Origin: an uncultured Bacteriovorax sp. | Lineage (GTDB): Bacteria; Bdellovibrionota; Bacteriovoracia; Bacteriovoracales; Bacteriovoracaceae | Length of the DNA: 64,000 nucleotides | Direction: 5' to 3' | NCBI GenBank assembly: GCA_964456675.1 | Contig: CAYWBR010000002.1 | Location: 19,215-83,214 of the forward strand | Shown: piece after piece, positions 5,623 through 32,941 of the stretch | Position numbering within the stretch: position 1 is the stretch's first letter | Layout of the letters: every line of letters starts with the position of its first letter | Translations under genes and position numbers: made by a program | The notes under the pieces: generated by a model | Told to the model about the DNA's origin: nothing | The model's input: only the letters and a program-made list of their open reading frames with translations | The model's database searches: none

Positions 5623-6417
5623 TTATTCTTTTATCCAATTTGGCTTTTGTTTTTCTAAAAGAGAATTCATTCCATTTTGGCCTTCTTGCGAAATTCTTAA
5701 TTCAGATATGAGCTCTGTAGTAAACTTCCGTCTTTCTCCCCTTGGCAACTCAACAATTTGTTTAATTAAATCTTTGGTTCTTCTTTGTGCCACAGGAGCG
5801 CATACTAGATACTCATTTATTCTTTTTTCAAATAAAGCATCCAGTTCTTCTGACCCTACCACGCTATGAACAAGCCCCATTCTCAGTGCTTCTTCGGCCT
5901 TTATCCTTCTACCTGATAAAAAAGTTGCTCGCGCATGACTCTCCCCAATTTTAGCGACGACAAAAGGCGAAATCACCGCGGGCGCAAGCCCTAAGCGCAC
6001 TTCTGTAAATCCAAGCTCGGCATTACTAGAAGCAACAACTTCATCAGCACAAGCAACAAGTCCAGCTCCTCCGCCAAGAGCGTGCCCATGGAGTTTTAAT
6101 AAGACTGGTGCTGAAAAAGAGTTTAGTTGATAAAAGAGCTCGGCAAGTTCATTTGAATCTTTTATATTTTCAGAAAAAGAATAAGTGGCCATTTTTTTCA
6201 TCCAATTAAGGTCTGCACCTGCACAAAAGGATTTTCCATTAGACTTTATTATCAATATTCTCAGGTCTGTTATTGAACGTGCTCTTTTAATTATTTCGAT
6301 AAACTCACTAATAAATACTTCGTTAAAGGCATTGTGAAGTTCAGGGCGATCGAGCGTTATTGTGGCCACACCTCGTGAATCAATATCAAAAAGTATGAAA
6401 TTATTTTCCTTTATCAT
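5623..6417 (-). CDS. liuC: Methylglutaconyl-CoA hydratase (crotonase family)
   Basis: FCAGADLNWMK and EVRLGLAPAVISPFV motifs. Lies between the MCC beta and alpha genes. Confidence 0.85.
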   Translation of the reverse strand: MIKENNFILFDIDSRGVATITLDRPELHNAFNEVFISEFIEIIKRARSITDLRILIIKSNGKSFCAGADLNWMKKMATYSFSENIKDSNELAELFYQLNSFSAPVLLKLHGHALGGGAGLVACADEVVASSNAELGFTEVRLGLAPAVISPFVVAKIGESHARATFLSGRRIKAEEALRMGLVHSVVGSEELDALFEKRINEYLVCAPVAQRRTKDLIKQIVELPRGERRKFTTELISELRISQEGQNGMNSLLEKQKPNWIKE

Positions 6418-6446
6418 TTTTTACCTTCAATTTAAATTAGTAAAAA

Positions 6447-8060
6447 TTACATTCTAAAAACACCAAACTTCGTCTCATTTATTGGTGCATTTTTTGAAGC
6501 TTCAAGTGCAAGCGCTAAAACATCGCGAGTTTTGGCAGGATCAATCACCCCATCGTCCCAAAGCCTAGCTGTTGAATAGTAACACGAACCTTCTCTTTCA
6601 TATTTCTCAAGTATTGGGCGCTCAAATTCTGCCACCTCTTCTTTGGTCATTTCATTTTTTTTCTGTGCCAAAAGCGATTGCTGTTTTACTGTAGATAAAA
6701 CTTTTGCTGCCTGCTCACCACCCATCACTGAAATACGCGCATTTGGCCACATCCACAAAAAACGAGGAGAATATGCTCTACCGCACATGCCGTAGTTTCC
6801 TGCGCCAAAAGAGCCTCCAATAATAACAGTGAACTTTGGAACATTTACTGTTGATACAGCTGTCACCATTTTAGCACCATGCTTGGCAATTCCTTCATTT
6901 TCATATTGGCGGCCAACCATAAAGCCTGTGATATTTTGTAAAAACAATAGTGGAATTTTTCTTTGTCCACATAGCTCGATGAAGTGAGCTCCTTTTTGCG
7001 CACTTTCAGAAAAAAGAATCCCATTATTTGCCACAATACCTACCTGATGTCCGTGGATGCGAGCAAATCCTGTCACCAACGTGCCTCCGTAGCGCTCCTT
7101 AAACTCATGAAATTCAGATCCATCGACCAAACGTGCAATGATTTCTCTAACGTCAAAAGGCTTTCTGGTATCTTCAGGAATAATTCCGTAGATATCTTTC
7201 ATCTCAAAGAGCGGATCTTTAACATCTTTGTCAGAGGCCAAATCCTTAACTTTTTTTGCATTTAAATTCTCAATGATATTTCTAGTTATAATAAAAGCTT
7301 CTTCTTCATCGTTTGCAAAATGATCACTAACGCCACTTATTCTTGTATGTACGTCAGCTCCGCCTAAATCTTCGGCCGTAACCTCTTCGCCCGTTGCAGC
7401 CTTGACAAGAGGTGGTCCTCCTAAAAATATTGTACCGTTGTTTTTTACAATAACCGTCTCATCACTCATTGCAGGAACATAAGCTCCTCCCGCAGTACAC
7501 GATCCCAAGACCACCGCAATTTGAGAGATGCCCTTAGCTGACATTTGAGCTTGATTATAAAAAATTCTTCCAAAATGATCACGGTCGGGAAATACTTCGT
7601 CTTGTTTTGGTAAAAATGCCCCACCACTATCGACTAAATATATACATGGTAGTTGATTTTCTAGCGCTACCTCTTGAGCGCGTAAATGCTTTTTAACTGT
7701 TATGGGATAATAAGTACCTCCTTTAACAGTTGCATCGTTGGCGACAAACATACAAAGTGTACCATGGACTTTACCAATACCTGTCACCATGGCACCTGAT
7801 GGAACTTCGTCGTCGTAAAGATCGATTCCGGCCAGAGCGGACAACTCTAAAAAAGGAGAACCTGGGTCTAGGATTTTTTCAATTCTTTCACGGGGAAGAA
7901 ATTTTTTTCTGGCGTGATGTCTTGATACTGCATCACGACCTCCACCCAATTTAACTTTTGCGTGTAATTCATTTAGTTTTTCAAGCAAAGATAAATGAAA
8001 AGAACTATTTTTTTGAAAATCATTTGATCGTGTATCGATCTCTGATGAGAGTGCGTCCAT
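6447..8060 (-). CDS. liuB: Methylcrotonyl-CoA carboxylase beta (carboxyltransferase) subunit
   Basis: [35 protein letters not shown] and [10 protein letters not shown] motifs. Confidence 0.95.
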
Positions 8061-8214: not shown

Positions 8215-10827
8215 TTATTTTTTTGTCTTTTTAAGCAATTCATCCAGTTCACGCTTGCGCGTGGCCGGATCTTTAAGCTCTTTTAACTCTCTTACCTTTG
8301 GAACATTTTTAAGCGACGCAACTCCTCGCGCCTTCACAGGAGACACCTTATCACTGGCCACTTTTTTAACCATGTATTTAGGCTTACCCTCTTCATCAAT
8401 TTGCGGTTTGCCATCCTTATCTAAATCTGCAACTACATAAGTAAATGATCCATCTGCATTTTGAATAAAGAAAGGCTTGCCACTTAATTCGAGTATTTTA
8501 TTTTCCACATCTTTTGTCGTTGCGGTTTGAGGTAAAACTACCATTGATTGGTTTTCATATTTTACCAAAGATAAGTTTTGTAACCCTCCGGTTGGTCCTG
8601 CTGGTTGAGGCAACGAATTAAGTGCCTTATTCCCAGAGTTGCTCACGCCATTGGAAACTGTACCTGAACTTGTATTATCACCAGAGATTGAGCGTGCACT
8701 TACTGAAGAACCTGCCACATTGCTCGCATCACTAGCAATTGATCTAGAACTTGTGCCACTAGGACGAGACCAAACAGAATCGTCAAATCCACTTACGCTA
8801 GCAGGTTTTATTTCTTTTGGTTTTGAGATTTCTTTTTCAAGTTCTGCAATTTTCCTTTTTAATTTTTCAGTTTCTAAAATATCGTTTATTGAGCGTGTTG
8901 AGTTTGCTTCATTTGAAATTTGTGCATTTTTGGGGGCTTCAACAAGTTTTTGCTGTTGAATTTGCTGTTGTTGTGCCAGTTGCCCTTTTAAATTTTCTAA
9001 TTCTTTTTGCACTGATTCGTAGTTATCGCGACCTTTATCAATACTGGCCGCTCGATTAATATTCGCATCATCGTTTGATTTTTTATCGTTAGAATCGATT
9101 TCAGTTGTTGGCACCATTGAACCTTGGCCAGTAGAAAAGTTTGTTCCGAAAGCATCAAAACGATCATTACCGATTTCAGATGCAGGTGAAAATGCATTAG
9201 CGATCTGACTCGAAATCATCGTATCTTCAGCATCTCCACTATTTTCTGTTACAGTAGAGGTTTTTGACTCTACTGCTGCTGAACCAGGACCAAACGTAAT
9301 AGCAGTTCTGCGCCGATCGGTATCAAGATCATCATCTGATTCACCTGTTGAAGTGTTAAAATTACGTTTTGCTGACGAATGACGTGTAAACGTTTGCTGC
9401 ATCTCTGTGTTTTCACAGGCCCTAATAAAAAATGCTGATTTTGCTCTTTCTTTATCAAGCATAAAGTCCAGTGCGTTTCCAGTAAACATTCCTTTGTGTT
9501 TATTGACATCAAATTTATACTGTTTACTTCTATTTGACTTTGCGTTTTTGGACTCTAAAACTTCACAAGCGGCTTTCAAATTTAACTGGTCTGAAAATTC
9601 ACATTGATCACTTACAATTTTGGTAAAATCTGCTTTAATCATTTGCTCAAAATGGCTACTTAGTTTTTCATAGTCATTTTGTTTTACTTTCTGGTTTTTT
9701 TTAAAAACTTCAATAAAATGTTTTAAATTTTCTTGTTTATTACTTAGATATAAACTGGTAATTGAACTTTCATATTCGGAAAAATACACGTCTTCATTAT
9801 CCCTAATATCTGTCGTTATCATTTTAGTAATTTCTGCAACTGATTTATTTCCTGAAGTCGTTAAAATGCTGAATAATTTATCCAAAAAATTCCTGGTACG
9901 CTTCTCTTCAACAACGATACTTTCTGTCTTAAAAGAGTTTAATTCTCTTATTCTATTTATTGAATCTAAGACGCTATTATTTTTATTTTTTAGTATAGGA
10001 TCATCGGAAATTATTTTCGATAATTCACCATTCGATGATTTTACGTAAGTAAGATAGTCCTCATATGACTTGGATAAATCGTCTAAATTACTCTTTGAGC
10101 ATCCACTTAACTCTGCTTTTTGATGGGCTTGACAGGATTTAGGCGAGTCAAGATTCCACAACTTTTTACTAAGCGACAGCTCTTTTTGAATTTTCTCAGC
10201 ATCTTCGCTTATTGATAGATTTCTAAGTATGGCATGATTGATTGTTTGATTATATTCATCTACAGGAATAGCTAAATCTAGCTCTGTTCTATCTGGTACG
10301 CATGCACCGGCAACACTGCCACCACGTGATGCTCCATTCGTGGCACAGTTTAAGCGACTCTCACAAGTTGAAGCATCTAACTTATTTCTGATATCAAACC
10401 AATTAAACTCACTGCAATTAAAACTCATCGCTAGTTCTAACAATTCATTATTTTTTCCAACCAACGAGTAATGGCTTATTTCTTTATCACATTGACCCAT
10501 GCGAATTTCAGAATCACAACTAATAACAAATCTTGATAATGAACCATAACTCATACTGGAAGAAAAATTTGAAGGTTTTCTATATTTGAGTCCATAATCT
10601 ATTGGCGCATCTAAACGCTGAAAATTATCCAGCTTTAAATAGTTACCATTGTAATTTAATTGCCTAAGACCAGTGATCCCATCTGTTGCCGCCTCGGTAC
10701 TTGGCATAACTTGTTCTGGTTTCGCTTCAATATTTGATTGCCCTTTTGCCCATTGGGCGTTAATCGAACTGATATAAGCAAAATTACCAATAAGTAGAAA
10801 CATTTTTATTTGCTTAACATCCAACAT
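8215..10827 (-). CDS. Large secreted hypothetical protein (Cys-rich N-terminus, coiled coils, Ser-rich C-terminal half)
   Basis: ORF track gives 8215..10902. I moved the start to ATG 10827, which has a GGAG SD, lies downstream of a sigma28-like promoter and gives a signal-peptide-like N-terminus. Confidence 0.8.
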   Translation of the reverse strand: MLDVKQIKMFLLIGNFAYISSINAQWAKGQSNIEAKPEQVMPSTEAATDGITGLRQLNYNGNYLKLDNFQRLDAPIDYGLKYRKPSNFSSSMSYGSLSRFVISCDSEIRMGQCDKEISHYSLVGKNNELLELAMSFNCSEFNWFDIRNKLDASTCESRLNCATNGASRGGSVAGACVPDRTELDLAIPVDEYNQTINHAILRNLSISEDAEKIQKELSLSKKLWNLDSPKSCQAHQKAELSGCSKSNLDDLSKSYEDYLTYVKSSNGELSKIISDDPILKNKNNSVLDSINRIRELNSFKTESIVVEEKRTRNFLDKLFSILTTSGNKSVAEITKMITTDIRDNEDVYFSEYESSITSLYLSNKQENLKHFIEVFKKNQKVKQNDYEKLSSHFEQMIKADFTKIVSDQCEFSDQLNLKAACEVLESKNAKSNRSKQYKFDVNKHKGMFTGNALDFMLDKERAKSAFFIRACENTEMQQTFTRHSSAKRNFNTSTGESDDDLDTDRRRTAITFGPGSAAVESKTSTVTENSGDAEDTMISSQIANAFSPASEIGNDRFDAFGTNFSTGQGSMVPTTEIDSNDKKSNDDANINRAASIDKGRDNYESVQKELENLKGQLAQQQQIQQQKLVEAPKNAQISNEANSTRSINDILETEKLKRKIAELEKEISKPKEIKPASVSGFDDSVWSRPSGTSSRSIASDASNVAGSSVSARSISGDNTSSGTVSNGVSNSGNKALNSLPQPAGPTGGLQNLSLVKYENQSMVVLPQTATTKDVENKILELSGKPFFIQNADGSFTYVVADLDKDGKPQIDEEGKPKYMVKKVASDKVSPVKARGVASLKNVPKVRELKELKDPATRKRELDELLKKTKK

Positions 10828-10883
10828 ACTAAATACTCCATTAAATCTAAATAGACCTGGGCTTTTAAAATTTCCACAAACTA

Positions 10884-10910
10884 GTATCGGCAAAAACAGC
10901 ACAATCTTGA
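10884..10910 (-). promoter_or_regulatory. sigma28 (FliA)-like promoter
   Basis: TCAA-N15-GCCGATAC on the minus strand; consensus is TAAA-N15-GCCGATAA. Confidence 0.65.
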
Positions 10911-18517: not shown

Positions 18518-19351
18518 TCAACCTAAAAGTTTTAGTGCAGCTTGACCTTGAGCATTTGCTTGAGAAAGTACTGAAGTACCAGCATTCGTTAAGATGTTCA
18601 TCTTAGTATTCTTTGCCGATTCCATTGCAAAATCTGTGTCGCGAATTCGAGAGTTTGCAGCAGACAAGTTTTCAGATGAAATCTGTAAATTGTTTATTGT
18701 CGATGACAATCTGTTTTGAATCGCACCAAGCTCTGCTCTTTGTCCTGAAACATTTTGAAGAGCTGTATCAATAGTGGCCAGTGATGCCTGAGATCCATCT
18801 TTTGAACCTACTGTTAGCTCTTGAATTCCAAGTGCAGACATTCCGGCATTTGTTCTAGCGGCATCGTACTTAATTCTATCTTGGAAATCGTCATTATTGA
18901 TACCAACTTGGAAATCAAATTTATCCCCAGCACCATTTAAAAGTTTTTTACCGTTAAACTCTGTTGAAGATGAAATTCTTTCAATCTCTTGCTTTAAGTT
19001 CTGAAACTCAAGATCAGTAAACTTTCTTTCGTCATCACCTACTGTATCAGAAGCAGATTGTACTGATAATTCTCTTAATCTTACTAAAATGTTAGAAACC
19101 TCATTCAAACCACCTTCTGCTGTTTGAATCAATGAAATACCATCATTCGCGTTTCTTTCAGCTTGGTTAACACCACGAATTTGTGCTTTTAACTTTTCTG
19201 AAATCGCAAGTCCTGCAGCATCGTCTGCCGCACGTACAATTCTTGTACCAGATGATAATTTCCCTAGTGAGTTGGCTTGCTCAGTGTTGTTTGCGCTTAA
19301 TGTTCTCTGAGCTGCTAAAGACGTGACGTTGGTGTTGATACGTAATCCCAT
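18518..19351 (-). CDS. fliC: Flagellin (minimal, D0-D1 only)
   Basis: RINTN, LSSGTRI..AADDAAGLAI and SRIRDTDFA motifs. 277 aa with a GGAGG SD. Confidence 0.97.
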   Translation of the reverse strand: MGLRINTNVTSLAAQRTLSANNTEQANSLGKLSSGTRIVRAADDAAGLAISEKLKAQIRGVNQAERNANDGISLIQTAEGGLNEVSNILVRLRELSVQSASDTVGDDERKFTDLEFQNLKQEIERISSSTEFNGKKLLNGAGDKFDFQVGINNDDFQDRIKYDAARTNAGMSALGIQELTVGSKDGSQASLATIDTALQNVSGQRAELGAIQNRLSSTINNLQISSENLSAANSRIRDTDFAMESAKNTKMNILTNAGTSVLSQANAQGQAALKLLG

Positions 19352-19490: not shown

Positions 19491-19517
19491 TAATCGGTGG
19501 AGTGTTTAAACACTTTA
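19491..19517 (-). promoter_or_regulatory. sigma28 promoter of fliC
   Basis: TAAA-N15-ACCGATTA about 140 nt upstream of the flagellin ATG. Confidence 0.8.
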
Positions 19518-19652
19518 GGAAAAAATTGCTTTTTTTTAAAAAAATTAGTCAGTCATCCTGATTAAAATGATCAAATTCTAAACAAGCTTTTTCCTTATAT
19601 ACGTCGATAAAAAATGATCACATTTTTAGATTAATTTCCGATAAGAAATCTA

Positions 19653-22442
19653 ATGGAAAACAAAAAAGCGCTCGTCATTATCCCTCCCTACTCTGAACCT
19701 CTTAAAAAACTAGGGGAAATACTTTCAACTCCTGAAGAAGCTGAGTCAATTGATATATATGTTCTAGAAGATTTGAAAGAAGCTGGTCAATTGATCCCAA
19801 CATTAGGACAGTGTCTTATTGTCATCGCGAACGCAAAAAAATGCGCGCTATTCTTACAAGAAAACAGATGGGCAATATCTAAAAATCACTCAAAAGTAAT
19901 TTTGATGACCCCAAAAGAAATTCCCCAAAAAACCTTAATGAAATTTCTAAAAATTGGGCTTACTGAGGTAATTTTAGAAACACTTCCTCCTAAAAGCTTA
20001 CTTTACAAAATCAAACTACTTCTGCGCTCTGTAAAAGGACAAGAAAGTAAAAAAGAAGAAAATATCAACGTTAAAAGTATGCTTGACATGAGTCAGCAGA
20101 AAAATGACGACGAACAACAACGAGTTGAAAAAGGAATTATTGCAGACACAGAAGTAAGTGCCCCCTCAGAAGACAAAGAAAAAAAAATGATCATTGAAGA
20201 AGATACTGATTCATTTGATTATCTAAAAGCAAAAAAGAAAAACCAGCAAGAAGACAATGTCATTGACACTCACTGGAAATCAAAAAGAAACGACACTCAA
20301 ATCTCGTTAGAAGATGGCGAAGAAATTGAAAAGAAAAAATCATCTGCAGAAGAGATATCAACTTATTACAAAAATGAGCGTAAAGCTAATCTAGATCTTG
20401 ACTTCATAGCAGACGAAAACATGTCAGGGAAAGCTTCAGGAACTGAGGATGAGTCTACGTTTAGCATCGAAAAACTTAAGCAAGCAATGCTAACAGAGAT
20501 TGAACTTGAGGATAGTTTAAAAGATAAGAAAAAAAACAACTCCCTCGAAGAAGACGATGAAGATATTTATCATAGAGAACAAAAAGAAACAGAGATCAAT
20601 CTAGAAAAAGAAGATACAAAAAAAAGCGATACCTTCGAAGATGAATCTGACAACGAAAGAAAAAGAAAAAATGAAGACGTCACAGAGCTTAGTTTAGAGA
20701 AAGAAGAAAAAGCTAAATCTGACGAAAATCTAAACCTAATCGACAATTACCTCAAGGGTAAAATCAACAACGACAAATCCATCATGGAAGTTGACGAAGA
20801 AGAATTTGTTGATAAAAAAATCAATGAAATAAATGAGGATGATAAGGACGACTCGACTCAAAACAATCTATCGCTAGATGAAAATGAAGAAAGCGAAATG
20901 AGTCATGCTTCTAACTTAAAAGAAGAAATAAATAACACCGATCAAGAAAACGAAAAAGGTTTTCAACGTGAAGAAAGCGCAGAAGATGGCTTTATGCGCG
21001 GAAAAATTTCAAAAAACACCGATCTAAATCTACAAGAAGAAAAAAAAGATTCAAAGACGCAACAAGAAGAATCTAACAATAAAGAACGTGAAAATAGTCA
21101 CAAAAACTCACTAGACGATCTTGATGATTCATTAAATGATATTAACAAGAAAACTAAAACCAATGAAGCTGATGAAGAAATTGATAACTCAGATAAAAAT
21201 GCCGAAGTTGACCTGACTGATGAATCAGATGATCTACGAAAAAAATTACAAAACGAACTAGACCTAGAATTAGAAATGTCATCTGATGATGACACCCCTG
21301 AGAATCAAGATCAAAATAAAAAAAATGGTGTAAACAAACTTCAACGTTTAACTGTCGATGATGAAAATGAAAATAATAATAAATTAGAAAAATTAAATGA
21401 AGATGATGCTCGGTCTCAAAATCTTAAAAAATTAGCAAATACACAATTAGAATTTGAAAAGGAACATGATCTTGACTCAACTAATGCCTCAGTAGAACAT
21501 CTAGATAAATATATGCGAAGTCGATCTTTAAAATCTGAAGATCAAGACTGGAATATTGGCACAAAGAAAAAAGATACAGCGATAGCGCTACAAAAAGGTA
21601 AAAAAGACGACGTAAATTTAAATTTGTTGCCTGACTTCAAAGATGCGGGTGAACAAACAATCGATTATCGCAAATTAAAAGAAGAATTTGAACTTCTAAA
21701 AGATGGTGCCAATCTTCCTCCTGACGAAATAGAAAAAATTCGAAAAATGATTCGTGGTGAAAGTGAAGATAGTGAGGATCTATATCAAGTATTCTCGCCA
21801 AGCCCTAACGGTGTAGACTTTCTTGTTGAAATTGCCATTGATTTGTACGACACAAGCATAAAACCTCGCGATATTTTTGAAAAAATAGCAAAAAAAATTC
21901 ATGAACAAAAAGGATTTGCTACTTTTTTACAATACTCAAAACCAACCGAAATAAAAGAAATATACTCAGTATTTCAAATAACTGAAAACGGATTTATCAG
22001 CGATGAAACTCGTAATGCTTTTTCTGAAATAAAAAAAGAAAATGATTTATTTAAGACACAAGCAACCTACTCACTGGCAAATTGGAAATGCACTGAAATA
22101 CTCGACAAAAACAATCGCCCCTGGGAAGACACTGAACTTCCAACTTGGGCACAAAATGAACTTCAAAACAAGAAAGTTGAATATATATATCCAATGTTTG
22201 ATGGACTAGATCGAATGGGTCATATCTACATATGGTTTCCTGACGGAATCGTCGCTAATGAAGCCCGAAATATCGATATTATTATAGAGGCCTCAAGACC
22301 TTTGTTTCTTGATCAAATAATTAGATCATCAAAAAATACCAAGATTAATGATGCTGATGAAAATGAAGATAACCAAAATAATCAAAAAACGGGAATATTT
22401 AGCGGAATCACATCTCTTTTTGGCAAAAAAAAAGTGGGATAG
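19653..22442 (+). CDS. Pseudo-receiver domain + long acidic disordered region + C-terminal globular (GAF-like?) domain
   Basis: Residues 1-125 follow the REC pattern (VILMTP, FLKIGLTEVI, SLLYKIKLLLR) but lack the acidic pocket and conserved Lys. About 550 aa are D/E/K/N-rich. Confidence 0.75.
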   Translation: MENKKALVIIPPYSEPLKKLGEILSTPEEAESIDIYVLEDLKEAGQLIPTLGQCLIVIANAKKCALFLQENRWAISKNHSKVILMTPKEIPQKTLMKFLKIGLTEVILETLPPKSLLYKIKLLLRSVKGQESKKEENINVKSMLDMSQQKNDDEQQRVEKGIIADTEVSAPSEDKEKKMIIEEDTDSFDYLKAKKKNQQEDNVIDTHWKSKRNDTQISLEDGEEIEKKKSSAEEISTYYKNERKANLDLDFIADENMSGKASGTEDESTFSIEKLKQAMLTEIELEDSLKDKKKNNSLEEDDEDIYHREQKETEINLEKEDTKKSDTFEDESDNERKRKNEDVTELSLEKEEKAKSDENLNLIDNYLKGKINNDKSIMEVDEEEFVDKKINEINEDDKDDSTQNNLSLDENEESEMSHASNLKEEINNTDQENEKGFQREESAEDGFMRGKISKNTDLNLQEEKKDSKTQQEESNNKERENSHKNSLDDLDDSLNDINKKTKTNEADEEIDNSDKNAEVDLTDESDDLRKKLQNELDLELEMSSDDDTPENQDQNKKNGVNKLQRLTVDDENENNNKLEKLNEDDARSQNLKKLANTQLEFEKEHDLDSTNASVEHLDKYMRSRSLKSEDQDWNIGTKKKDTAIALQKGKKDDVNLNLLPDFKDAGEQTIDYRKLKEEFELLKDGANLPPDEIEKIRKMIRGESEDSEDLYQVFSPSPNGVDFLVEIAIDLYDTSIKPRDIFEKIAKKIHEQKGFATFLQYSKPTEIKEIYSVFQITENGFISDETRNAFSEIKKENDLFKTQATYSLANWKCTEILDKNNRPWEDTELPTWAQNELQNKKVEYIYPMFDGLDRMGHIYIWFPDGIVANEARNIDIIIEASRPLFLDQIIRSSKNTKINDADENEDNQNNQKTGIFSGITSLFGKKKVG

Positions 22443-22451
22443 GTAAATAAA

Positions 22452-23504
22452 ATGAAAGCAGAAATTGACTTCTTTTTAATTGATAAAGAACACTTGAAAG
22501 GTCAACGAACTTTTCCATTTCAACTATTCATCATGAATCCTATTCATAAAAAATTTACTCTTTTTTTAAATGCCAATCGACCAATGTCTAAAGAACTAGA
22601 TAATTTTTTAGACTATATAGTTTCTAAAGGTGGCTTTTTGGCCGTTTTAAGAAAACAAAAAAAGACTTTCTTAAAGGCCCTCGAATTAAACGAAGATGAT
22701 GTGCCTACCCTTAAAAAGCGAGAATTACACGATTTAGAAAAAGAACAGATCATGTATAGCAAATTGAAAGAAATATGGATTGAAAAACATGGTGTTTTTG
22801 GCTTTTTAACAGAGTTTGAAAAGGCCGCAAAAACAGACAACTTTGATAGAATAATTGAATACACACGAGTAGAGATATTAGCATTTAGTGTTAATCGAAA
22901 TAGCACAAATACATTTGCAATAGAATTGGCCAAAAAATTTCTTATTAAAGATAATTTTATCAATCGAATTGTAGCTACCGCATATTATGTTGCTAAAAAC
23001 TTAAATATATTAGACGAAGATTCGTTATCAGACATTATAGTAGGAAGCTATCTCATTCATCTTGCAAATACTCAAATGTCACTTTCCATAAGTAGAAAAG
23101 CACAGCAAGAATATTTTGACGCTGAAAAAAAGTTCTACCAAAAACATCCACTACTGGCTTTTCACTTATTAAAACGCAGTCAAATCAATGTGAATGAACG
23201 AGTAAAACGCATTGTTAATGAGCATCACGAGCGAAACGGAGGACGTGGTTTTCCAATGGAAAAAGCAGGAGACGCAATTGAGCCACTGGCCTTATTAGTA
23301 GGAGCTGTCGCTCACCTATTCGAATATTCCACTGGAAAAGTGAACGGCAGTAAGCAATCCCTTCGCTCCGTTATTTTTCATATAAAAAATCGTTCAATTA
23401 TGCCTGGACTAGAATTTGATTTCGGCGATACTATATATAACGCAATTACAACTTTAATTGATACAGAGAAAAAAGAAGAAGATAATTTAAACTTAGCTGC
23501 TTAG
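22452..23504 (+). CDS. Degenerate HD-GYP-domain protein
   Basis: KHP..AFHLL and HHERNGGRGFP match the HD-GYP core. The HD dyad reads IHLAN. Confidence 0.75.
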   Translation: MKAEIDFFLIDKEHLKGQRTFPFQLFIMNPIHKKFTLFLNANRPMSKELDNFLDYIVSKGGFLAVLRKQKKTFLKALELNEDDVPTLKKRELHDLEKEQIMYSKLKEIWIEKHGVFGFLTEFEKAAKTDNFDRIIEYTRVEILAFSVNRNSTNTFAIELAKKFLIKDNFINRIVATAYYVAKNLNILDEDSLSDIIVGSYLIHLANTQMSLSISRKAQQEYFDAEKKFYQKHPLLAFHLLKRSQINVNERVKRIVNEHHERNGGRGFPMEKAGDAIEPLALLVGAVAHLFEYSTGKVNGSKQSLRSVIFHIKNRSIMPGLEFDFGDTIYNAITTLIDTEKKEEDNLNLAA

Positions 23505-23538
23505 ATTGTTATTCATAATATATTTTCGGGAGAGTAAC

Positions 23539-23934
23539 ATGGCTTTGAAAGCTGACATTAAAATTCTTGTTGTGGACGATATGGCGACAATGAGAAAAAT
23601 TATTAAAAACATGCTTACACAAATTGGATTTACCAACATTACAGAAGCTGATGACGGTGCAACTGCATGGCCTTTAATGGAAAGTGCAATTAAAGAGGGA
23701 AAGCCATTTGAATTTATCGTTTCTGACTGGAACATGCCTCAAATGAGTGGTCTCGATTTATTAAAAAAAGTAAGAGAAACTAAAGGTCTTGAAAAACTTC
23801 CGTTTCTAATGATTACGGCAGAAGCCGAGCAAGGAAACGTTGTTATAGCTGTTAAGGCAGGTGTAAGTAACTTTATTGTAAAACCATTTTCTGCCCAAGT
23901 TCTAAAAGAAAAAATTGATAAAATATTCAAATAG
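23539..23934 (+). CDS. cheY: Chemotaxis response regulator CheY
   Basis: VVDD, SDWNMP, MITAE and VKPF are all intact. Start moved to ATG 23539, which follows a GGGAGAG SD. Confidence 0.93.
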   Translation: MALKADIKILVVDDMATMRKIIKNMLTQIGFTNITEADDGATAWPLMESAIKEGKPFEFIVSDWNMPQMSGLDLLKKVRETKGLEKLPFLMITAEAEQGNVVIAVKAGVSNFIVKPFSAQVLKEKIDKIFK

Positions 23935-23945
23935 GTCCGTTTAGC

Positions 23946-24443
23946 ATGACGTTTATAAATGATCCCATGATGAAAGAGATTGTTGATGATTTTTGCATCG
24001 AAGCTGAAGGTTTATTCGACCAGATGGATGAGTGCATTCGAAAATTAGAAGACAACCCTCTAGATACTAAAGAGTTAGAAAAGTATGGGCAAATGATTGA
24101 TCGGATTATGGGTGCTGCGAAATCAATTGGCGCCTCTGAAATTGCTACTTTTTGCGAGCTTGGGAAAGTTATTGGATATAAATCGTCACAAACAAGAGAA
24201 GTCCCACTTCTTGAAGTAGTTATCGCAATTTTAGGCGATACGGTAGATATGTTAAGAAAAATGATTAAAGCGCTAAAAGTGGGAGATGCTACTTGTCTTA
24301 ATAAATTGAATACCAAAGCGTTTGTAACTAGATTGCAATGGCTTTCGGCCAAATTTAAAGACATTGAAAGATCTTCTTGCAAGATTGATGGTAACTTAAA
24401 CCAGAATTCAATCGATGATTTATTACAAAGTTTAGGATTATAA
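23946..24443 (+). CDS. Hpt-like helical protein lacking histidine, with a CheZ-like C-terminal peptide
   Basis: CheA-P1/Hpt-like pattern (F..EAE.L...L..LE.NP). The H-box reads IDRIMGAA and the protein ends SIDDLLQSLGL. Confidence 0.7.
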   Translation: MTFINDPMMKEIVDDFCIEAEGLFDQMDECIRKLEDNPLDTKELEKYGQMIDRIMGAAKSIGASEIATFCELGKVIGYKSSQTREVPLLEVVIAILGDTVDMLRKMIKALKVGDATCLNKLNTKAFVTRLQWLSAKFKDIERSSCKIDGNLNQNSIDDLLQSLGL

Positions 24444-24458
24444 AATATTGGAGTCTAT

Positions 24459-24968
24459 ATGGCAGGTGAGTCGCGGTTCATTGAGTTTTCTAAACCATTT
24501 ATTGATGCAGCTAAAAACGTTTTTGAAACAATGGTTTTTACTAAATTAGATACGTCTAAGCCCACAATAAAAAATGACAATATTTCTAAGGGGGACATTT
24601 CTGCAGTATTAGGACTTTCTGGAGAAGTAGAAAAAAATGGTTCAAAAGTTCCCTATAAAGCCATGCTTGTCATATCATTTCCATATGAAACATATTTCAA
24701 GGTTGCAGGTGCAATGCTGTCAGAAACCTATACATCTTATTGTCCTGAAATTCATGATGTGGGTGGAGAAATTGCCAATATGATTATGGGAAATGCTAAG
24801 CGAGATTTAAAAACTATGGGATATTCATCAAATATGGCGATTCCATCTATGATCGAAGGTAAAAATCATACAATTAAATATCCCAATGGGACAACCGTAG
24901 TGTTAATTCCATTTCTAAGCGCCCATGGTGAAATGTATATGGAACTTTGCTATACAGAATCTGAATAA
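24459..24968 (+). CDS. cheX: Chemotaxis phosphatase CheX
   Basis: ISAVLGLSG, GEIANMIMGN (ExxN) and MAIPSMIEG motifs. Confidence 0.9.
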   Translation: MAGESRFIEFSKPFIDAAKNVFETMVFTKLDTSKPTIKNDNISKGDISAVLGLSGEVEKNGSKVPYKAMLVISFPYETYFKVAGAMLSETYTSYCPEIHDVGGEIANMIMGNAKRDLKTMGYSSNMAIPSMIEGKNHTIKYPNGTTVVLIPFLSAHGEMYMELCYTESE

Positions 24969-25462: not shown

Positions 25463-26282
25463 AAATAATTCCTTTATTAAGATTTTTTTGAATTTCTATA
25501 CTTTTAGATATCGCCATATCCATAGAGGTGCGAATTAATTTTTCGACTCCCCCATCTTTCATCGATTGAATTGCCTTCTCTGTTAAACCACCTTTTGAGG
25601 TTACTTGAGAACAAAGTTCATTTAGTGTTAATCGATTATTAAAATAGAGTTCTACAGATCCTTTAATTACATCCATCATTATGCGTTCTAAATCCATCTC
25701 CGCGAGCGCCGGAATTTTTCTTTCTTTTAAATCAAGTGCGAGATCATTAAAAAAAGAATATAGCATACCTGGCAAGCACCCAGTATAGGGTGTGAGTAAT
25801 TCTAATTCATTATCGCTTTGAAGCTCAATAATGGTTCCAAAATGTTGACCTAAAATTTTAAATTGAGCGGCCAGAGGGTCAAAGAGCACTGACTGGTGAA
25901 TTACAATCGGAATCACTCCCAAGCCAATCTCTGAAGGAGTATTTGGCATTATCCTAATTAGTCGATTTGTTTTGAATTTTTTTTCTAAAGTATCAAGACT
26001 AATTGCTGCTAGCATCGATACTAGAATTGCTTCTTTTTTAAGTTTTGGAATTAATACTGTTTCCAATGATTGAGGCTTCATGGCCAAAAATAAAAAATCT
26101 AAATCTTCTGGGAATTCATTTAAATCATGAACGAATTCACCACAAGTTTCAACTGCCAATTGCCGGGCCTTAGTAGCACTTGGCGAGTAAAAATAAAGCT
26201 GCACTCCGGTTCTTCCACAGGCTTTAAGTCTTAAACCTAAAGCCCTTGCCATATTTCCTGCGCCTAAAAATCCAATTTTCAT
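25446..26282 (-). CDS. proC: Pyrroline-5-carboxylate reductase
   Basis: IGFLGAGNMA, LAMKPQ, RIMPNTP and VTSKGGLT motifs. Confidence 0.92.
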   Translation of the reverse strand: MKIGFLGAGNMARALGLRLKACGRTGVQLYFYSPSATKARQLAVETCGEFVHDLNEFPEDLDFLFLAMKPQSLETVLIPKLKKEAILVSMLAAISLDTLEKKFKTNRLIRIMPNTPSEIGLGVIPIVIHQSVLFDPLAAQFKILGQHFGTIIELQSDNELELLTPYTGCLPGMLYSFFNDLALDLKERKIPALAEMDLERIMMDVIKGSVELYFNNRLTLNELCSQVTSKGGLTEKAIQSMKDGGVEKLIRTSMDMAISKSIEIQKNLNKGIIYEKNS

Positions 26283-29200
26283 TATAATTCCAAATCTAGT
26301 GGTGCTCCGTGCCTCATAGTATTTATGGCCAGTGATCTGACATTAACAAATTTTAAGTAAATTTGGTAAAAATCATTAAGGTCAAAAGAGTCCTGAATTG
26401 TTAAAATGTGTACCAAACGTTTTCTTACGATATCTCCATAAAGATAAGTTGTGAGCTCGTTAGGCACAGACTCGATTGGTCCGTCATATAATACGTGAGT
26501 TAGTTTTTCATCTCTTAATGCTTTTTTGAAACTTTCTTCAGTCACAAAAAAAGCATCTAGATTTTCTTTAGAAAATCCTGATTTATAAAACAAGTCTAAA
26601 ATATGCGACCAAAATTGATAGCTTTTTTCGTTTCGACAAAGAACACTCACTCCAACACCTGTTGATACAGCAGCAAAAAATTGAAGAAGTGTTTTAATAT
26701 GAGGCCTAGGATTTACGCTCACGACAAGCATATGATCGACATGCATGCGATGATTGTTAACACTAATTTGACCAGGGATCTTTCTATTTGCGTGGTCCTT
26801 TTCAAAGAAGTTTATATAATTTTTACTCATCCACTTTAAGTAATTTCTCACAACTTCTTTTTCACCGGGACGAACGTCGCCCATAAAAGATTCAAATGAA
26901 GATAACAATTGATTTGAAAATTTTTCCATGCGCTCTAATTTTGAACTAAAGCTTAATCGAGATGGTTTAGCGCGCACAATTTCATAGTCACTGCCTTTTT
27001 CGATCAAACAGCGAACTCCTTCAATTACATTAAAAGAAGTTTGATGAAGTGCCTGAATATAATGACGTCCACCTGCTTTTGGGCCTGTTCCAGAAAATTT
27101 AAATCCTCCAAAAGGCTCAATGCCAACTCTTGCTCCAGTGATCGTTCTATTGATATATAAATTCCCACATTCTAGACGATCAACTAAATAATCAATATCG
27201 TCTTGAGATTGAGAAAAAATTCCACCAGTAAGTGCATAATCGGTTGCATTGAATAATTTAATTGCATCATCTAGTTCTTTAAAGCCAATGATGTGTAGTA
27301 CTGGTCCAAAAATTTCTTGCTGGGAAACACTTTCGCTATTTAGAGCTCGATCCATTGGCAATTCAATAATACTTGGCCCAATATCAAATCCTCGACTTTC
27401 ATGGTTGGCACGAGAAAGAACCATTGATCCTTTAAACTCATTCGCTTCAAGTTCTGAAGCCTTCACCATTCGGCGTACTCTTTCTTTGTCTTCTTTCGAA
27501 ATTAGTGGATTTATGCTGGTTTTAAAATCAAGCGCAGACCCCACTGCAATATCAATAGAAGCGGCTTTTAATCTCTCAATTAATTTAGGTTTTAATGATT
27601 CATGAACAATGACTCGTGAACAAGCTGAACATTTCTGGCCAGCATGACCAAATGCAGATGCTAGAATACCAGAGACTGTTTCATCTAATTCGGCATTTTG
27701 AGCGACAATTATGGCATTTTTTCCACCCATTTCCGTAATGGCTTTTACTGGATAAATCTTTTTAAATCGTTTATTTTCGTACACACGTTTTTGAGCTTCA
27801 CGGTGAATATAGGTTCCAACAGCTTTAGATCCAGTAAAAATTATTCCTGAGATGCGTGGGTCCTTCACTAAATAATCCCCTACTACTTCACCAAGACCCG
27901 GTAGGTGAACAAAAGCTCCTTTGGGTACACCGGCCATAAAGAAAATTTTTGCTAGTTCTTCGGCAATTAGCGGAGTTTGCTCAGCAGATTTTAAAATGAC
28001 AGTGTTACCTGCTACTAATGCACCCGCGGCCATACCACATGGGATAGCGAGAGGAAAATTCCAAGGTGCGATTACGGCAATTGGACCTCTTGCAATTAAA
28101 TTATCAAAATTTGTCTGTAAGTAACCTTCTGTACGCGCATAAAAAGTTAAAAAATCGATAGCCTCATCTACGTCTGCCAGGGCTTCATTAACTGTTTTTC
28201 CAGCTTCGTACATGATAAGGGCCGATAGCTCTAATCTTTTTGAAAGCATAATTTCGCTTGCTCTCAAAAGAATTTTTGCTCGAACAATCCACGAAACAAT
28301 AGGCCAGTCTCCTTCATTAAATTCTCTATCGACTATTTTCAGGGCATCTTCTGTGTCATTTGCATCAGCAAAGGCAATCTTTCCCACCGTTATCGCAGAG
28401 TCTGAACTAGAAATAATCTCAACTAGATTATTAGATCTTATATGCGAAAGTTCATAAGTTTTTCCTAATTTATTTGACTCAAAGCTTTTTATTGCCTGAT
28501 TTATTTCACGCAAGTGATCCGCTAAATAAAGCCTTGCAGGACCTACGTTAAAAAATTCTTCGCTCAGTTTTGTTTGGCTTAAGTCTCTATCGATATTACC
28601 CTTTTCTTTTTTCTCTTTATGGGCATCGAGAGGAGATACTAATGATGTCTGCTTTTTATGGGATCTCATTATGGTTAAAACTCCAACCTGCGAAGAGTTT
28701 TCCATAATTCTTCTAACCAAATATGCCATCCCAACTAATAACGAACCTACCGGAACATAATTTCTTACAACCCAACCTTCTTTGGCCAGTGCCGTTGAAA
28801 GCGCTTCATAGGTCATGTGCAAACATTGGTGTTCGATTTTAAAAGATTCAGGGTACATTTTTTCTCTGAGAGCTTCTGCAAATGCATGATCTGAAAAATT
28901 ATGAGATGCCAGACACAGCTTAATATGTTTATGGTTTTTTAACATTTCATGTACAAGTTGGCGAAAATGAATGTCTGTTTCTTCTTTGTTTAAAAACTGA
29001 GGAGCATTAAAGCCATGGGCATCTCCCTCAACGGTTTCAGCATCCCAATAAGCACCTTTGACAATACGAACAGGCATAGAAAAACCGCGTATCTTTGCCA
29101 GCTCTAAAATATCTTTAAAGTGCTTTGCTCCATCTCGTAAGTAAGCCTGAAGAACAATCCCGGTATTACTAAAATCTTTTAACTCTGGTGTTTCTAATAA

Positions 29201-30460
29201 AATGCGCTTCCAAATATCAAAAACTATATCGCGATAATGGTAGTGTTCTGCATCGATATTAATAAACACACAATGCTCTTTCGCCGTTAATAATATTTTT
29301 TTTAAACGAGGAGCAACTAAATGATAGGTATATTCTGGAGCATGGGGCTTAAAATCTGATGCTAGTGCAGATACTTTTATAGATACATGGGCCCTTAAAA
29401 TTCCGGCTGCATTTTCTTCTGCATGCTTTACATGCCGTGAAAATCCTCGAACTAACTTGAGGACTTCTTCCATATAGTGATCGGCTTCACTCTCAGAAAC
29501 AACTAATTCTCCCAATTGGTCTAGAGTTACGTCTCTTCCGGTAACTCTTAAAGCTTTAAGAGACTCGTCTGCAAGCTCAATGCTTTCACCGGCAATAAAT
29601 CTTTTGGCCATAAATCGAACCATAGATCTAACGATTGATGCCAACATTCCTGCAGGTAGAATCTTGCTTGCTTGATAAGATAAATGAATGATCAACGTAA
29701 AATTATTTGGCAATGGTCTTTCTTGACCTTTCTTTTTTAAAATACGTGCTTTTTTATTATCACCTAGAAATCGTTTTAGTGATTCTAATAAAATTCTCTT
29801 TACCTCAACTCCCCTTTTATCGTGGTCAAGAGAAGGTAGAATCGCTAAAAATTTTAAGAGGTGAATTCTCAATAATGCATATTGCGCAGTTAACCCCAGC
29901 GCATAGTCTGAAATCATTTCAAACCAACTTGGTGAGTAGCTATTAACGTGGACAAGTAAGGATTTAACAATTTCTTCGGCCCGACGATCAACTTCTTTTA
30001 AAGTCACAAGATCAATTAAATCTAAAATTTTTGTAATGACTTCACTTTCAGTGGGAAAGTCTTTTACTTTTAGTTTTAATACTGGGTCTACATGGTTTTT
30101 TAATTCTTGGAAAACTGCACTGGATAAGATTTTTCCACTGGAATCTTGATTCGCATGTTGAAGCAAAAATAATTCATTATGCAATCTTGGCGAATAAAAA
30201 CGTATGGCTTTAGCGTTTGGAAAAAAAGCTACCAAATAAGGAACTGTTAAAAAATTAAATTCTTTTCTAAAATCACTATCTAAATTTAAAATATATGTTT
30301 TTAATGTAGAAGCAATATCGGCATGAAGCTCTCTATCCATAAACATATTGTCATGGTAATCAGCATAATAACTTAAACTCCATCCTTCGAATTGCACAGT
30401 TTTTATTGGTGAAAAAATTTTCAAAATAGTTTCAGATGTTACGTTGGTGGTCATGGCCAT
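26282..30460 (-). CDS. putA: Bifunctional proline dehydrogenase / glutamate-semialdehyde dehydrogenase, extended
   Basis: PRODH motifs INIDAE, VLQAYLR, RIVKGAYWD and ASHN. ALDH motifs APWNFPLAI, EMGGKN, GQKCSACSR, QEIFGPV and FGGFKFSG. Confidence 0.95.
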   Translation of the reverse strand: MAMTTNVTSETILKIFSPIKTVQFEGWSLSYYADYHDNMFMDRELHADIASTLKTYILNLDSDFRKEFNFLTVPYLVAFFPNAKAIRFYSPRLHNELFLLQHANQDSSGKILSSAVFQELKNHVDPVLKLKVKDFPTESEVITKILDLIDLVTLKEVDRRAEEIVKSLLVHVNSYSPSWFEMISDYALGLTAQYALLRIHLLKFLAILPSLDHDKRGVEVKRILLESLKRFLGDNKKARILKKKGQERPLPNNFTLIIHLSYQASKILPAGMLASIVRSMVRFMAKRFIAGESIELADESLKALRVTGRDVTLDQLGELVVSESEADHYMEEVLKLVRGFSRHVKHAEENAAGILRAHVSIKVSALASDFKPHAPEYTYHLVAPRLKKILLTAKEHCVFINIDAEHYHYRDIVFDIWKRILLETPELKDFSNTGIVLQAYLRDGAKHFKDILELAKIRGFSMPVRIVKGAYWDAETVEGDAHGFNAPQFLNKEETDIHFRQLVHEMLKNHKHIKLCLASHNFSDHAFAEALREKMYPESFKIEHQCLHMTYEALSTALAKEGWVVRNYVPVGSLLVGMAYLVRRIMENSSQVGVLTIMRSHKKQTSLVSPLDAHKEKKEKGNIDRDLSQTKLSEEFFNVGPARLYLADHLREINQAIKSFESNKLGKTYELSHIRSNNLVEIISSSDSAITVGKIAFADANDTEDALKIVDREFNEGDWPIVSWIVRAKILLRASEIMLSKRLELSALIMYEAGKTVNEALADVDEAIDFLTFYARTEGYLQTNFDNLIARGPIAVIAPWNFPLAIPCGMAAGALVAGNTVILKSAEQTPLIAEELAKIFFMAGVPKGAFVHLPGLGEVVGDYLVKDPRISGIIFTGSKAVGTYIHREAQKRVYENKRFKKIYPVKAITEMGGKNAIIVAQNAELDETVSGILASAFGHAGQKCSACSRVIVHESLKPKLIERLKAASIDIAVGSALDFKTSINPLISKEDKERVRRMVKASELEANEFKGSMVLSRANHESRGFDIGPSIIELPMDRALNSESVSQQEIFGPVLHIIGFKELDDAIKLFNATDYALTGGIFSQSQDDIDYLVDRLECGNLYINRTITGARVGIEPFGGFKFSGTGPKAGGRHYIQALHQTSFNVIEGVRCLIEKGSDYEIVRAKPSRLSFSSKLERMEKFSNQLLSSFESFMGDVRPGEKEVVRNYLKWMSKNYINFFEKDHANRKIPGQISVNNHRMHVDHMLVVSVNPRPHIKTLLQFFAAVSTGVGVSVLCRNEKSYQFWSHILDLFYKSGFSKENLDAFFVTEESFKKALRDEKLTHVLYDGPIESVPNELTTYLYGDIVRKRLVHILTIQDSFDLNDFYQIYLKFVNVRSLAINTMRHGAPLDLEL

Positions 30461-32488: not shown

Positions 32489-32941
32489 TTATGATAAGTG
32501 CTTACCAACGATTCCTGCAAGTTCGAACATAGTAACTTCTTTCTTTCCGAAAAGTTTTTGTAACTTATCGTCAGCAAGAATGTTTCTTTTGTTTTTTGGG
32601 TTTTGAAGATTATTTTTCTTAATATAATCCCAAACTTTTTTAACAACTTGTGTTCTTGGAAGTGGCTTGTTTCCTACGATTTCAGCTAAAAGAGCTGATG
32701 GAGTAAGAGCTTTCATGAAAGCTTCATTTGGCTTTCTAGCTTTTTTAACTTTTGGAGCTGCTACTTTTTTAGTAGCTTTTGCTGCTTTTGGAGCTGCTGC
32801 TTTCTTAGTAGCTTTTGGAGCTGCTGCTTTTTTAGTAGCTTTTGGAGCTGCCTTTTTAGTAGCTTTTGGAGCTGCTTTTTTTGTAGCTTTTGGAGCTGCT
32901 TTTTTAGTAGCTTTTGGAGCTGCTTTCTTCTTTACTGCCAT
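32489..32941 (-). CDS. SWIB/MDM2-domain protein with histone-H1-like Lys/Ala N-terminal repeats
   Basis: About seven KKAA(A)PKAT-type repeats, then the SWIB pattern LAEIVG...PRTQVVKKVWDYIKKNNLQNP.NKRNI.AD.KL..LFG. Confidence 0.92.
   Translation of the reverse strand: MAVKKKAAPKATKKAAPKATKKAAPKATKKAAPKATKKAAAPKATKKAAAPKAAKATKKVAAPKVKKARKPNEAFMKALTPSALLAEIVGNKPLPRTQVVKKVWDYIKKNNLQNPKNKRNILADDKLQKLFGKKEVTMFELAGIVGKHLS
32755..32935 (-). repeat. In-frame 24/27-nt tandem repeats encoding KKAAPKAT
   Basis: Repeating TAGTAGCTTTTGGAGCTGC(TGC)TTTTT units inside the CDS. Confidence 0.9.

Follow-up and report, generated by a model that had tools for sequence, protein, structure and literature searches.

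The gene cluster and its surroundings

We analysed a 64,000-nucleotide (nt) stretch of DNA from an uncultured Bacteriovorax sp. (GenBank assembly GCA_964456675.1, contig CAYWBR010000002.1, positions 19,215 to 83,214), here referred to as the window; coordinates are counted from its first letter unless a locus name precedes them. We focused on a cluster of five co-oriented open reading frames (ORFs) at 19653-24968 on the plus strand, designated g1 to g5, which includes genes for CheY and CheX and lies divergently to a flagellin gene. We give an even chance to the interpretation that g1-g5 encode an auxiliary complex that terminates the signal of phosphorylated CheY (CheY~P) and that contains two uncharacterised families, those of g1 and g4; g3 and g5 belong to known families. 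The window is AT-rich (GC ~35%), its DNA matches metagenomes from wastewater and freshwater, and every relative of its genes belongs to Bacteriovoracaceae, Halobacteriovoraceae, Bdellovibrio or Oligoflexia. The genes, with protein lengths in amino acids (aa), are as follows.

18518-19351, minus strand: flagellin gene, 277 aa (Flagellin_N 7e-42, Flagellin_C 3e-24)
19653-22442, plus strand: g1, 929 aa
22452-23504, plus strand: g2, 350 aa; Bd1817/Bd1822-type protein with an N-terminal domain, a helical linker and an HD-GYP domain whose metal site is degenerate
23539-23934, plus strand: g3, 131 aa counted from the ATG (orthologues all 130-133 aa); CheY, a single-domain response regulator whose catalytic residues are all present
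23946-24443, plus strand: g4, 165 aa
24459-24968, plus strand: g5, 169 aa; predicted CheX-type CheY~P phosphatase (PF13690, E104-x-x-N107)

An earlier note on this DNA, made from the sequence alone, had described five co-oriented genes with short gaps that are divergent from flagellin. Its coordinates are exact, and the gaps amount to 9, 34, 11 and 15 nt. The flagellin gene lies 300 bp upstream of g1-g5, and this pairing is retained in 28 related loci. A strong terminator of the flagellin side is present at 18481-18458, and no terminator-like site was found on the plus strand within the cluster. Recognisable ribosome-binding sites precede g3 and g5, with GGGAGAG ahead of the g3 ATG. No transmembrane segment was found in any of the g1-g5 proteins.

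We then scanned the window ORFs of at least 130 aa from position 1 to ~55 kb, a set that left out a 1392-aa ORF (26282-30460) and the ORFs past ~55.2 kb. None of them encodes CheA, CheW, a methyl-accepting chemotaxis protein (MCP), CheR or CheB, which agrees with the earlier note's description of the neighbourhood. No other che or fla gene was found in this set either, and the remainder is metabolic or housekeeping.

Promoter elements and transcription

Two candidate promoter elements lie between the divergent units.

19638-19644, plus strand: σ28 −10-like element CCGATAA, 8 nt ahead of the g1 ATG, read directly from the sequence
19492-19517, minus strand: candidate σ28-like flagellin promoter TAAAG-N15-CCGATT, found by pattern match

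The σ28 consensus of E. coli and Salmonella is TAAA-N15-GCCGATAA, and our σ28 assignment is derived from it. The pattern CGA[TA]A[AT] ends 6-13 nt upstream of the g1 start in 21 out of 31 orthologous loci, compared with 3.8% of random 35-nt windows. No Shine-Dalgarno sequence was found ahead of g1. This absence, together with a −10-like element only 8 nt from the ATG, suggests a FliA-type operon mRNA that is leaderless or has a very short leader. In the window copy the −35 element of the predicted g1 promoter is poor. The flagellin site is fuller than the g1 one, and similar sites, TAAAG-N15-CCGAAA[AT], are found in several orthologous intergenic regions. In fact, the complete pattern with both −35 and −10 elements occurs upstream of flagellin in many loci but upstream of g1 in few, and only the −10 element is widely conserved at g1. 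Taken together, these patterns suggest that σ28-type elements serve both divergent transcription units. Public metatranscriptome contigs that are 100% identical to the window are short and lie within flagellin, the 3' end of g4, and g5.

Intact CheY and CheX encoded by g3 and g5

The product of g3 is an ordinary, fully phosphorylatable CheY, to judge from its sequence. It matches Response_reg at 3.6e-25 and the NCBIfam CheY model at 7.6e-42, the latter with a score of 142.5, which is below the equivalog cut-off of 189, and it shares 46% identity with E. coli CheY. The residues D13, D14, D63, T93 and K115 (equivalent to D12, D13, D57, T87 and K109 in E. coli) are each conserved in 48-49 of 49 orthologues, so that the protein is intact as had been claimed; Tyr106 of E. 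coli CheY is replaced by Phe. On sequence comparison, the peptide-binding face also resembles that of E. coli CheY (A96, F112, V114, K125 and K128).

The product of g5 belongs to PF13690 (5.5e-19, score 68.5 against a cut-off of 27) and matches the NCBIfam CheX model at 9.6e-13. Its E104-x-x-N107 motif is invariant in 47 sequences, and the earlier description of an intact CheX with ExxN is thus borne out.

A P1-like protein with a CheY-binding-type tail encoded by g4

The protein of g4 consists of two parts joined by a flexible linker.

23946-24395, plus strand: residues 1-150, five-helix bundle like the P1 (phosphotransfer) domain of CheA; AlphaFold2 (AF2) predicted local distance difference test (pLDDT) 74.5, predicted template modelling score (pTM) 0.70
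24396-24440, plus strand: residues 151-165, tethered CheZ/FliM-type putative CheY~P-binding peptide LNQNSIDDLLQSLGL

In the AF2 model the helices span residues 7-36, 41-60, 64-81, 86-112 and 124-143. Foldseek matched g4 with the CheA P1 domains 3kyj, 1i5n and 1tqg (probability 1.0, TM 0.73-0.82 on the target), and its top natural fold match is 3kyj, the complex of CheA3-P1 with CheY6. The Pfam Hpt match is weak (6e-4, 20.5 bits, under the gathering cut-off of 24.6). With hhalign, g4 residues 10-61 were aligned on residues 6-61 of E. coli P1, which puts Asp52 on His48 of E. coli CheA; phmmer gave the same result with the P1 domain of T. maritima. Therefore, the column of the phosphorylated His is occupied in g4 by Asp52, which is followed by Arg53, and Gln49 lies one helical turn ahead of Asp52. 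Among 112 representatives of the g4 family (<50% identity), D52 is conserved in 109, R53 in 106, and Gln or Asn at position 49 in 95. An Asp-Arg pair kept family-wide at the phospho-His position looks like a selected new surface and not mere loss. The earlier note had called g4 a His-less Hpt-like protein with a CheZ-type tail, and the P1 fold, Asp52 and the tail all agree with that. Its general picture of catalytic loss with retained surfaces has the anatomy right for every gene of the cluster, but for g4 the word loss fits poorly.

The family of g4 is large and unnamed. We collected 425 close homologues, 368 clusters at 50% identity, and 923 matches with a broader profile. Most of the family consists of stand-alone proteins, 160-180 aa long, in which F16, E19, D52, R53, M55, G56, K74, Y78, D98, R129 and W132 are retained.

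The tail NQNSIDDLLQSLGL matches the tail of E. coli CheZ, SQDQVDDLLDSLGF. Comparing LNQNSIDDLLQSLGL with the C-terminus of E. coli CheZ, ASQDQVDDLLDSLGF, 8 out of 15 residues are identical, while 6 out of 10 are identical with LSQAEIDALL of FliM, whose EIDAL motif is an established CheY-binding site (PMC6946799). Residues 143-153 of the linker have pLDDT <50, a helix is predicted at 156-162, and the motif [LM]xQxxIDxLLKKLG[LIV] is kept throughout the broad g4 family. We also considered whole-length homology to CheZ and rejected it: with hhalign, the family profile and E. coli CheZ were aligned over the last 18 residues only, with a probability of 9.6%, and neither Pfam nor NCBIfam gave a CheZ match in g4. 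A search of the 32-residue tail against PDB sequences found no match, the peptide chains in that library being too short.

Several relatives differ in build or setting. Proteins of 139-144 aa that are g4-like and carry no tail are encoded at L060:7567-9276, L058:7971-8405 and L059:5210-5644, and the gene in L060 lies between cheY and a 286-aa fusion gene of a receiver domain (REC) and CheX. A second g4 paralogue with 62% identity to g4 is found at L027:7568-8486, in the same metagenome-assembled genome (MAG) as L009; a 123-aa receiver is encoded ahead of it and a 446-aa HD-domain protein nearby, with no g1 or CheX.

The conserved surface raises the question of whether g4 is itself a CheY~P phosphatase, which would add a third structural type to CheZ and the CheC/CheX/FliY family. 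In that case, CheY~P would be tethered by the tail, as happens in CheZ, and docked by the P1-like face in the manner of phosphotransfer, and the amide-acid pair of Gln/Asn49 and Asp52, with Arg53, would position the attacking water, comparable to D143/Q147 of CheZ and ExxN of CheX. Since D52 is aligned with the phospho-His, it would be expected opposite Asp57 of CheY in a P1:CheY-type complex such as the top match 3kyj, and the conservation of the three positions and the CheZ-like architecture (helical bundle, flexible linker, C-terminal CheY-binding-type peptide) point the same way. However, the amide-then-acid order is reversed relative to ExxN and DxxxQ, a canonical CheX gene is adjacent in most lineages, and some fused relatives lack D52, such as P0289, which is described below. 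We therefore regard catalysis by g4 as unlikely.

A proposed scaffold protein with a MinD-like tail encoded by g1

No Pfam match was found for g1. Its product can be divided into four regions.

19653-20042, plus strand: residues 1-130, pseudo-receiver of (βα)5 fold (AF2 model, Foldseek)
20043-21647, plus strand: residues 131-665, acidic disordered region, pLDDT <50 over most of it
20265-20285, 20358-20378, 20742-20762, 20985-21005 and 21504-21524, plus strand: five short motifs within the disordered region, at residues 205, 236, 364, 445 and 618
21648-22352, plus strand: residues ~666-900, conserved folded α/β domain with no assigned family (AF2 pLDDT 71-89)
22392-22439, plus strand: C-terminal tail GIFSGITSLFGKKKVG, candidate amphipathic membrane-targeting sequence, proposed from conservation

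Residues 1-126 show the receiver order β1-α1 to β5-α5 with pLDDT of about 75-87, and Foldseek matched the N-terminus with receiver domains including pseudo-receivers of CpaE/TadZ type (E 6e-5 and above). The acidic pocket is gone, with P11-P12 in place of D12-D13 and A59/N60 in place of D57. The disordered region is 535 aa long, with 28.8% aspartate plus glutamate (D+E), 13.6% K and a net charge of −67, and the earlier description of a pseudo-receiver followed by a disordered stretch holds. Within it, five conserved motifs follow the pattern [ILV][DS]x[HYF][WYLM][KR][GSN][KRE], for example DTHWKSK and DNYLKGK. They are visible in the consensus of 38 orthologues, in which T206 and W208 are invariant and Y238 and K370 nearly so. 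In build, g1 resembles ChePep of Helicobacter and Campylobacter, a protein with a REC-like N-terminus: both are large, acidic and mostly disordered with a receiver-like N-terminus, and the D+E content of 28.8% compares with 29.6% on average in ChePep (PMC3143842).

The α/β domain has the AF2 secondary structure H-H-EE-HH-EE-H-EE-HH and 20 invariant columns. It is possibly GAF-like, as this order of elements and a single Foldseek match to the GAF domain of CodY, at rank 41, would indicate. For this domain, nothing but noise came from a profile search of PDB sequences and from Pfam scans of 15 members. The tail is retained in 38 of 38 orthologues with the consensus KKN[IV]LSxFSGLFGKKKAG. The sequence GIFSGITSLFGKKKVG is basic and hydrophobic and similar to the tail of E. 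coli MinD, EEKKGFLKRLFGG, and its hydrophobic moment is moderate (<=0.48). By this likeness, the g1 tail may bind the membrane.

The MinD-like tail also bears on what the g4 tail might target. The EIDAL motif of FliM/FliY also binds the MinD-like ATPase FlhG. The g4 tail, which is as near to LSQAEIDALL of FliM as to CheZ, could thus be directed at another partner of EIDAL-type motifs, with a role in flagellar assembly, number or placement, or g4 could be a non-catalytic buffer of CheY against FliM. The similarity of the g1 tail to tails of the MinD/FlhG ATPase family, the pairing of the operon with flagellin and the σ28-like element would suit such a role. Signal handling is a better match for the close and conserved linkage with cheY and cheX, and with cheA in one Oligoflexia locus, and the P1-like body is a CheY-recognising fold. 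We consider this reading of the g4 tail, as directed at another target or as a mere buffer of CheY, quite improbable.

Conservation of the cluster across Bdellovibrionota

The order of a flagellin gene on the minus strand followed by g1-g5 on the plus strand recurs, with unrelated flanks, in dozens of species-level genomes, and the arrangement is retained across Bacteriovoracaceae and Halobacteriovoraceae. We searched 64 loci that contain a g4-like gene with hidden Markov models (HMMs). As a result, all five families were found within 7 kb in 37 loci, and g2, g3, g4 and g5 together in 14 more. A gene of the HD-GYP family lies beside or near the g4-like gene in 57 of the 64 loci, in Bacteriovoracia, Bdellovibrionia and Oligoflexia. 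In Bdellovibrio the same families occur within about 5 kb in another order. In Bdellovibrio bacteriovorus and its relatives, a g4 homologue (33% identity) and the Bd1817 orthologue (PDB 3tm8, E 5.8e-182) point away from each other, and an operon of CheY, CheX and a 459-aa HD-GYP protein lies 1-4 kb from this g4 homologue.

Because the same genes and order recur in dozens of genomes with differing flanks, the clustering goes far beyond chance. The earlier note had named lack of co-conservation as grounds for abandoning its idea, and what we found is an order kept across families. Chance adjacency of genes with no joint function could appeal to the fact that none of the short metatranscriptome contigs matching the window spans a gene junction. 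This explanation is contradicted by the synteny, which extends across families and classes, by the gene fusions described below, and by the short gaps without internal terminators; we hold it to be extremely improbable and rejected it.

Locus L053, from an Oligoflexia MAG, has a g4-like gene right behind a complete cheA (REC-Hpt-HATPase-CheW), as part of a cheB-cheY-cheR operon. The order at L053:1685-9433 is cheB, a gene without assignment, cheY, cheR, REC, cheA with an N-terminal REC, and the g4-like gene, whose start overlaps the cheA stop; a 310-aa HD-GYP gene faces it in convergent orientation. Such a setting may be the ancestral one for the g4 family. Since g3 is phosphorylatable and this Oligoflexia gene directly follows a complete cheA, the term kinase-less, used in the earlier note, describes merely a local arrangement; it is correct for the surroundings of g1-g5 in so far as no CheA was found near the cluster among the scanned ORFs.

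Some members of the g4 family are fusion proteins. A Pfam scan of the long members found no N-terminal domain, and an HMM of the g1 pseudo-receiver then showed that four representative clusters fuse a g1-type pseudo-receiver with a g4-type P1-like domain and the tail (E 2e-7 to 3e-20). These proteins, P0260, P0262, P0289 and P0312, are 335-365 aa long. A short motif like those of g1, e.g. DEGFMRVGG, is present in the linkers of P0289 and P0260, and P0289 has Gly in place of D52 (AGRISG). By the Rosetta-stone argument, such natural fusions indicate that g1 and g4 function together.

The degenerate HD-GYP protein encoded by g2

The product of g2 matches Pfam HD_5 at 6.1e-11 (42.8 bits against a cut-off of 27.2). 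In its metal site, N171 takes the place of the first His and H203-L204 that of HD, and no clear final Asp is present, while H232 and H258-H259-E260 are retained. The HHE...GFP segment spans residues 258-268, and the GFP of the window protein is GYP in most orthologues. We aligned 43 orthologues and two Bdellovibrio proteins, and the degenerate pattern is common to the 43 orthologues: a hydrophobic residue stands where HD has its Asp, the first His has given way to Asn, and HHE and G[YF]P remain. The protein is thus better called Asp-less than HD-less, the term of the earlier note, because H203 is followed by L and HHE...GFP is retained; that its metal site is degenerate is correct. No Pfam match to DUF3391 was found in g2, and its likeness to the N-terminal domain of Bd1817 rests on one multiple alignment.

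The nearest Bdellovibrio relative of g2 is a 459-aa protein adjoining CheX (E 6e-8). In the Bd1822-like copy at L061:14089-15468, the 459-aa HD-GYP protein by CheX is also degenerate, with HN for HD, HRE for HHE, and GFP. It has an N-terminal extension of ~130 aa that is receiver-like by eye; the HMM of the g1 N-terminus gave no match among the Bdellovibrio proteins, including this extension. Bd1817, the sole characterised relative of g2, neither bound nor hydrolysed cyclic di-GMP (c-di-GMP) in vitro (PMC3188283). The coupling of motor control to c-di-GMP and the stop of swimming at prey entry, both put forward in the earlier note, have no direct support here and stay speculation.

The frequency of HD-GYP-family genes beside or near g4-like genes across three classes suggests another way to read the cluster, namely as a split RpfG, in which the HD-GYP protein is the real output. 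In this case g4 would bring CheY~P to g2 and control the activity or contacts of g2, or g2 would sense a nucleotide and gate the lifetime of CheY~P, and chemosensory input would be coupled to c-di-GMP-type signalling or to another function of g2. The neighbour of the g4-like gene in locus L056 is a REC-HD-GYP fusion of 660 aa. REC-HD-GYP, as in RpfG, is a common architecture, and inactive members work via protein contacts (bioRxiv 10.1101/2021.11.05.467447). On the other hand, the Asp of HD is missing, along with other metal ligands, from g2 and its nearest Bdellovibrio relative, purified Bd1817 had no phosphodiesterase activity and no c-di-GMP binding (PMC3188283), no GGDEF, EAL or PilZ gene is present within the cluster, and the flagellin pairing and the σ28-like element favour a motility role. 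A split-RpfG device of this kind is, in our estimate, doubtful.

Proposed mechanism

We propose, at what we judge to be evenly balanced odds, that the five genes, as one operon belonging to the flagellar regulon, produce a membrane-tethered station at which CheY~P is captured and its signal terminated. First, a CheA encoded elsewhere in the genome would phosphorylate the g3 CheY. Second, g4, as a non-phosphorylatable copy of P1, would grip CheY~P twice: its C-terminal CheZ/FliM-type peptide would bind the α4-β5-α5 face of CheY in competition with FliM, and the face formed by helices A and B of its P1-like body would cover the active site. Third, CheX would provide the established ExxN phosphatase chemistry. 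The scaffold would be g1, with its pseudo-receiver holding g4, its acidic disordered region with five repeated motifs collecting further partners, and its basic and hydrophobic tail fixing the assembly to the inner membrane, probably by the flagellated pole. The metal-site-degenerate HD-GYP protein g2 would act as a regulatory or binding subunit and not as an enzyme. The membrane-anchored hub of the earlier note gains support from the MinD-like tail of g1, its ChePep-like build and the fusions of the g1 pseudo-receiver with g4.

Several points weigh against this proposal. We infer the physical interactions, the membrane or polar location, the enzyme activities, including which protein hydrolyses CheY~P, and any c-di-GMP input from sequences, models and comparative analysis. 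A competent CheX is already adjacent, so that a docking adaptor is not obviously needed, and the strict conservation of D52-R53 suggests that g4 does more than dock. The commonest neighbour of g4 is an HD-GYP-family gene (57 of 64 loci) and not CheX, which leaves the role of g2 vague in the hub model. Neither the Asp nor the KPF motif reported for ChePep is present in the pseudo-receiver of g1, and the likeness between the two is one of build and composition. The lack of a junction-spanning transcript mentioned above belongs here as well.

A bolder version starts from the conserved surface of g4. If the Q/N49-D52-R53 surface and the tether make g4 a new P1-derived class of CheY~P phosphatase or clamp, then with the ChePep-like scaffold and the HD-GYP pseudoenzyme it would make up a device, spread across Bdellovibrionota, by which a second input, possibly a nucleotide messenger, sets how long CheY~P lasts. 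This version is in our view improbable.

Other genes in the window

Among the other ORFs, several features were recorded.

1865-8060, minus strand: cluster like those of leucine/branched-chain catabolism (carboxyltransferase, enoyl-CoA hydratases, biotin carboxylase, biotin carrier, HMG-CoA lyase-like)
8215-10902, minus strand: 894-aa ORF without a Pfam match at E ≤ 1e-5
32489-32941, minus strand: 149-aa protein with a SWIB/MDM2 domain (9.5e-29), which is uncommon in bacteria
39592-45258, plus strand: cytochrome c assembly genes (ResB-like and CcsA-like) and, after them, genes for a histidine kinase and an OmpR-type response regulator, a two-component pair that is unrelated to the CheY cluster

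Comparison with known systems

We found no publication on g1, g4 or the whole module, and literature searches for Bacteriovorax with CheY, for Bd1816/1818/1823-1825, and for Bdellovibrio with CheX and HD-GYP returned nothing. The earlier note had stated that it knew no described system of this composition. Our searches agree as to composition, but a close functional analogue exists in the ChePep–CheZ pair of Campylobacterota (PMC3143842, PMC11237671).

Signal termination varies more than any other part of bacterial chemotaxis, with CheZ and the CheC/CheX/FliY family as the two well-established enzyme solutions. The product of g5 is an ordinary CheX of Borrelia/Thermotoga type, a member of the latter family, and the novelty of the module lies in its conserved partners. 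Like E. coli CheZ, g4 has a C-terminal CheY-binding-type peptide on a flexible linker, and in both cases the gene is directly 3' of cheY. However, its body is unrelated to CheZ, being a monomer-type five-helix P1 bundle with no DxxxQ. It shares this fold with CheA P1, including the R. sphaeroides CheA3 P1 in the complex with CheY6 (3kyj), and the gene of one relative is directly after cheA. Unlike CheA P1, g4 has an Asp-Arg pair in place of the phospho-accepting His, stands alone as a protein of 165 aa, and has the added tail. The module would thus show a CheA phosphotransfer domain recycled into a stand-alone, non-phosphorylatable CheY-handling protein, in a family of 368 clusters at 50% identity.

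The HD-GYP protein g2 shares its three-part build with Bd1817/Bd1822 (PDB 3tm8; PMC3188283), the nearest being the Bd1822-like protein by CheX. While g2 lacks the Asp of HD and the first His and keeps HHE and G[YF]P, Bd1817 keeps HD and lacks the Tyr of GYP. The genome context ties the orphan Bd1817/Bd1822 HD-GYP family to CheY signalling, which is a lead to their function. Moreover, motility control bears on prey finding and entry by Bdellovibrio-like predators.

The closest parallel is with ChePep, which has been reported only from Campylobacterota. ChePep is required for the polar localisation and function of CheZ, and its loss leads to hyper-reversal (PMC3143842, PMC11237671). The two systems are alike in that a ChePep-type protein is paired with a protein that has a CheZ-type tail and with CheY~P termination, apart from the genes for CheA and receptors. 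They differ in three respects. First, g1 has three elements beyond ChePep, namely the α/β domain towards its C-terminus, the short motif in five copies, and the MinD-like tail. Second, the partner here is a P1-like protein together with CheX, whereas the partner of ChePep is the four-helix hairpin of CheZ. Third, the HD-GYP pseudoenzyme is extra relative to ChePep–CheZ. With this module, the unusual ChePep–CheZ arrangement known from Helicobacter would have a counterpart in predatory bacteria, probably of independent origin.

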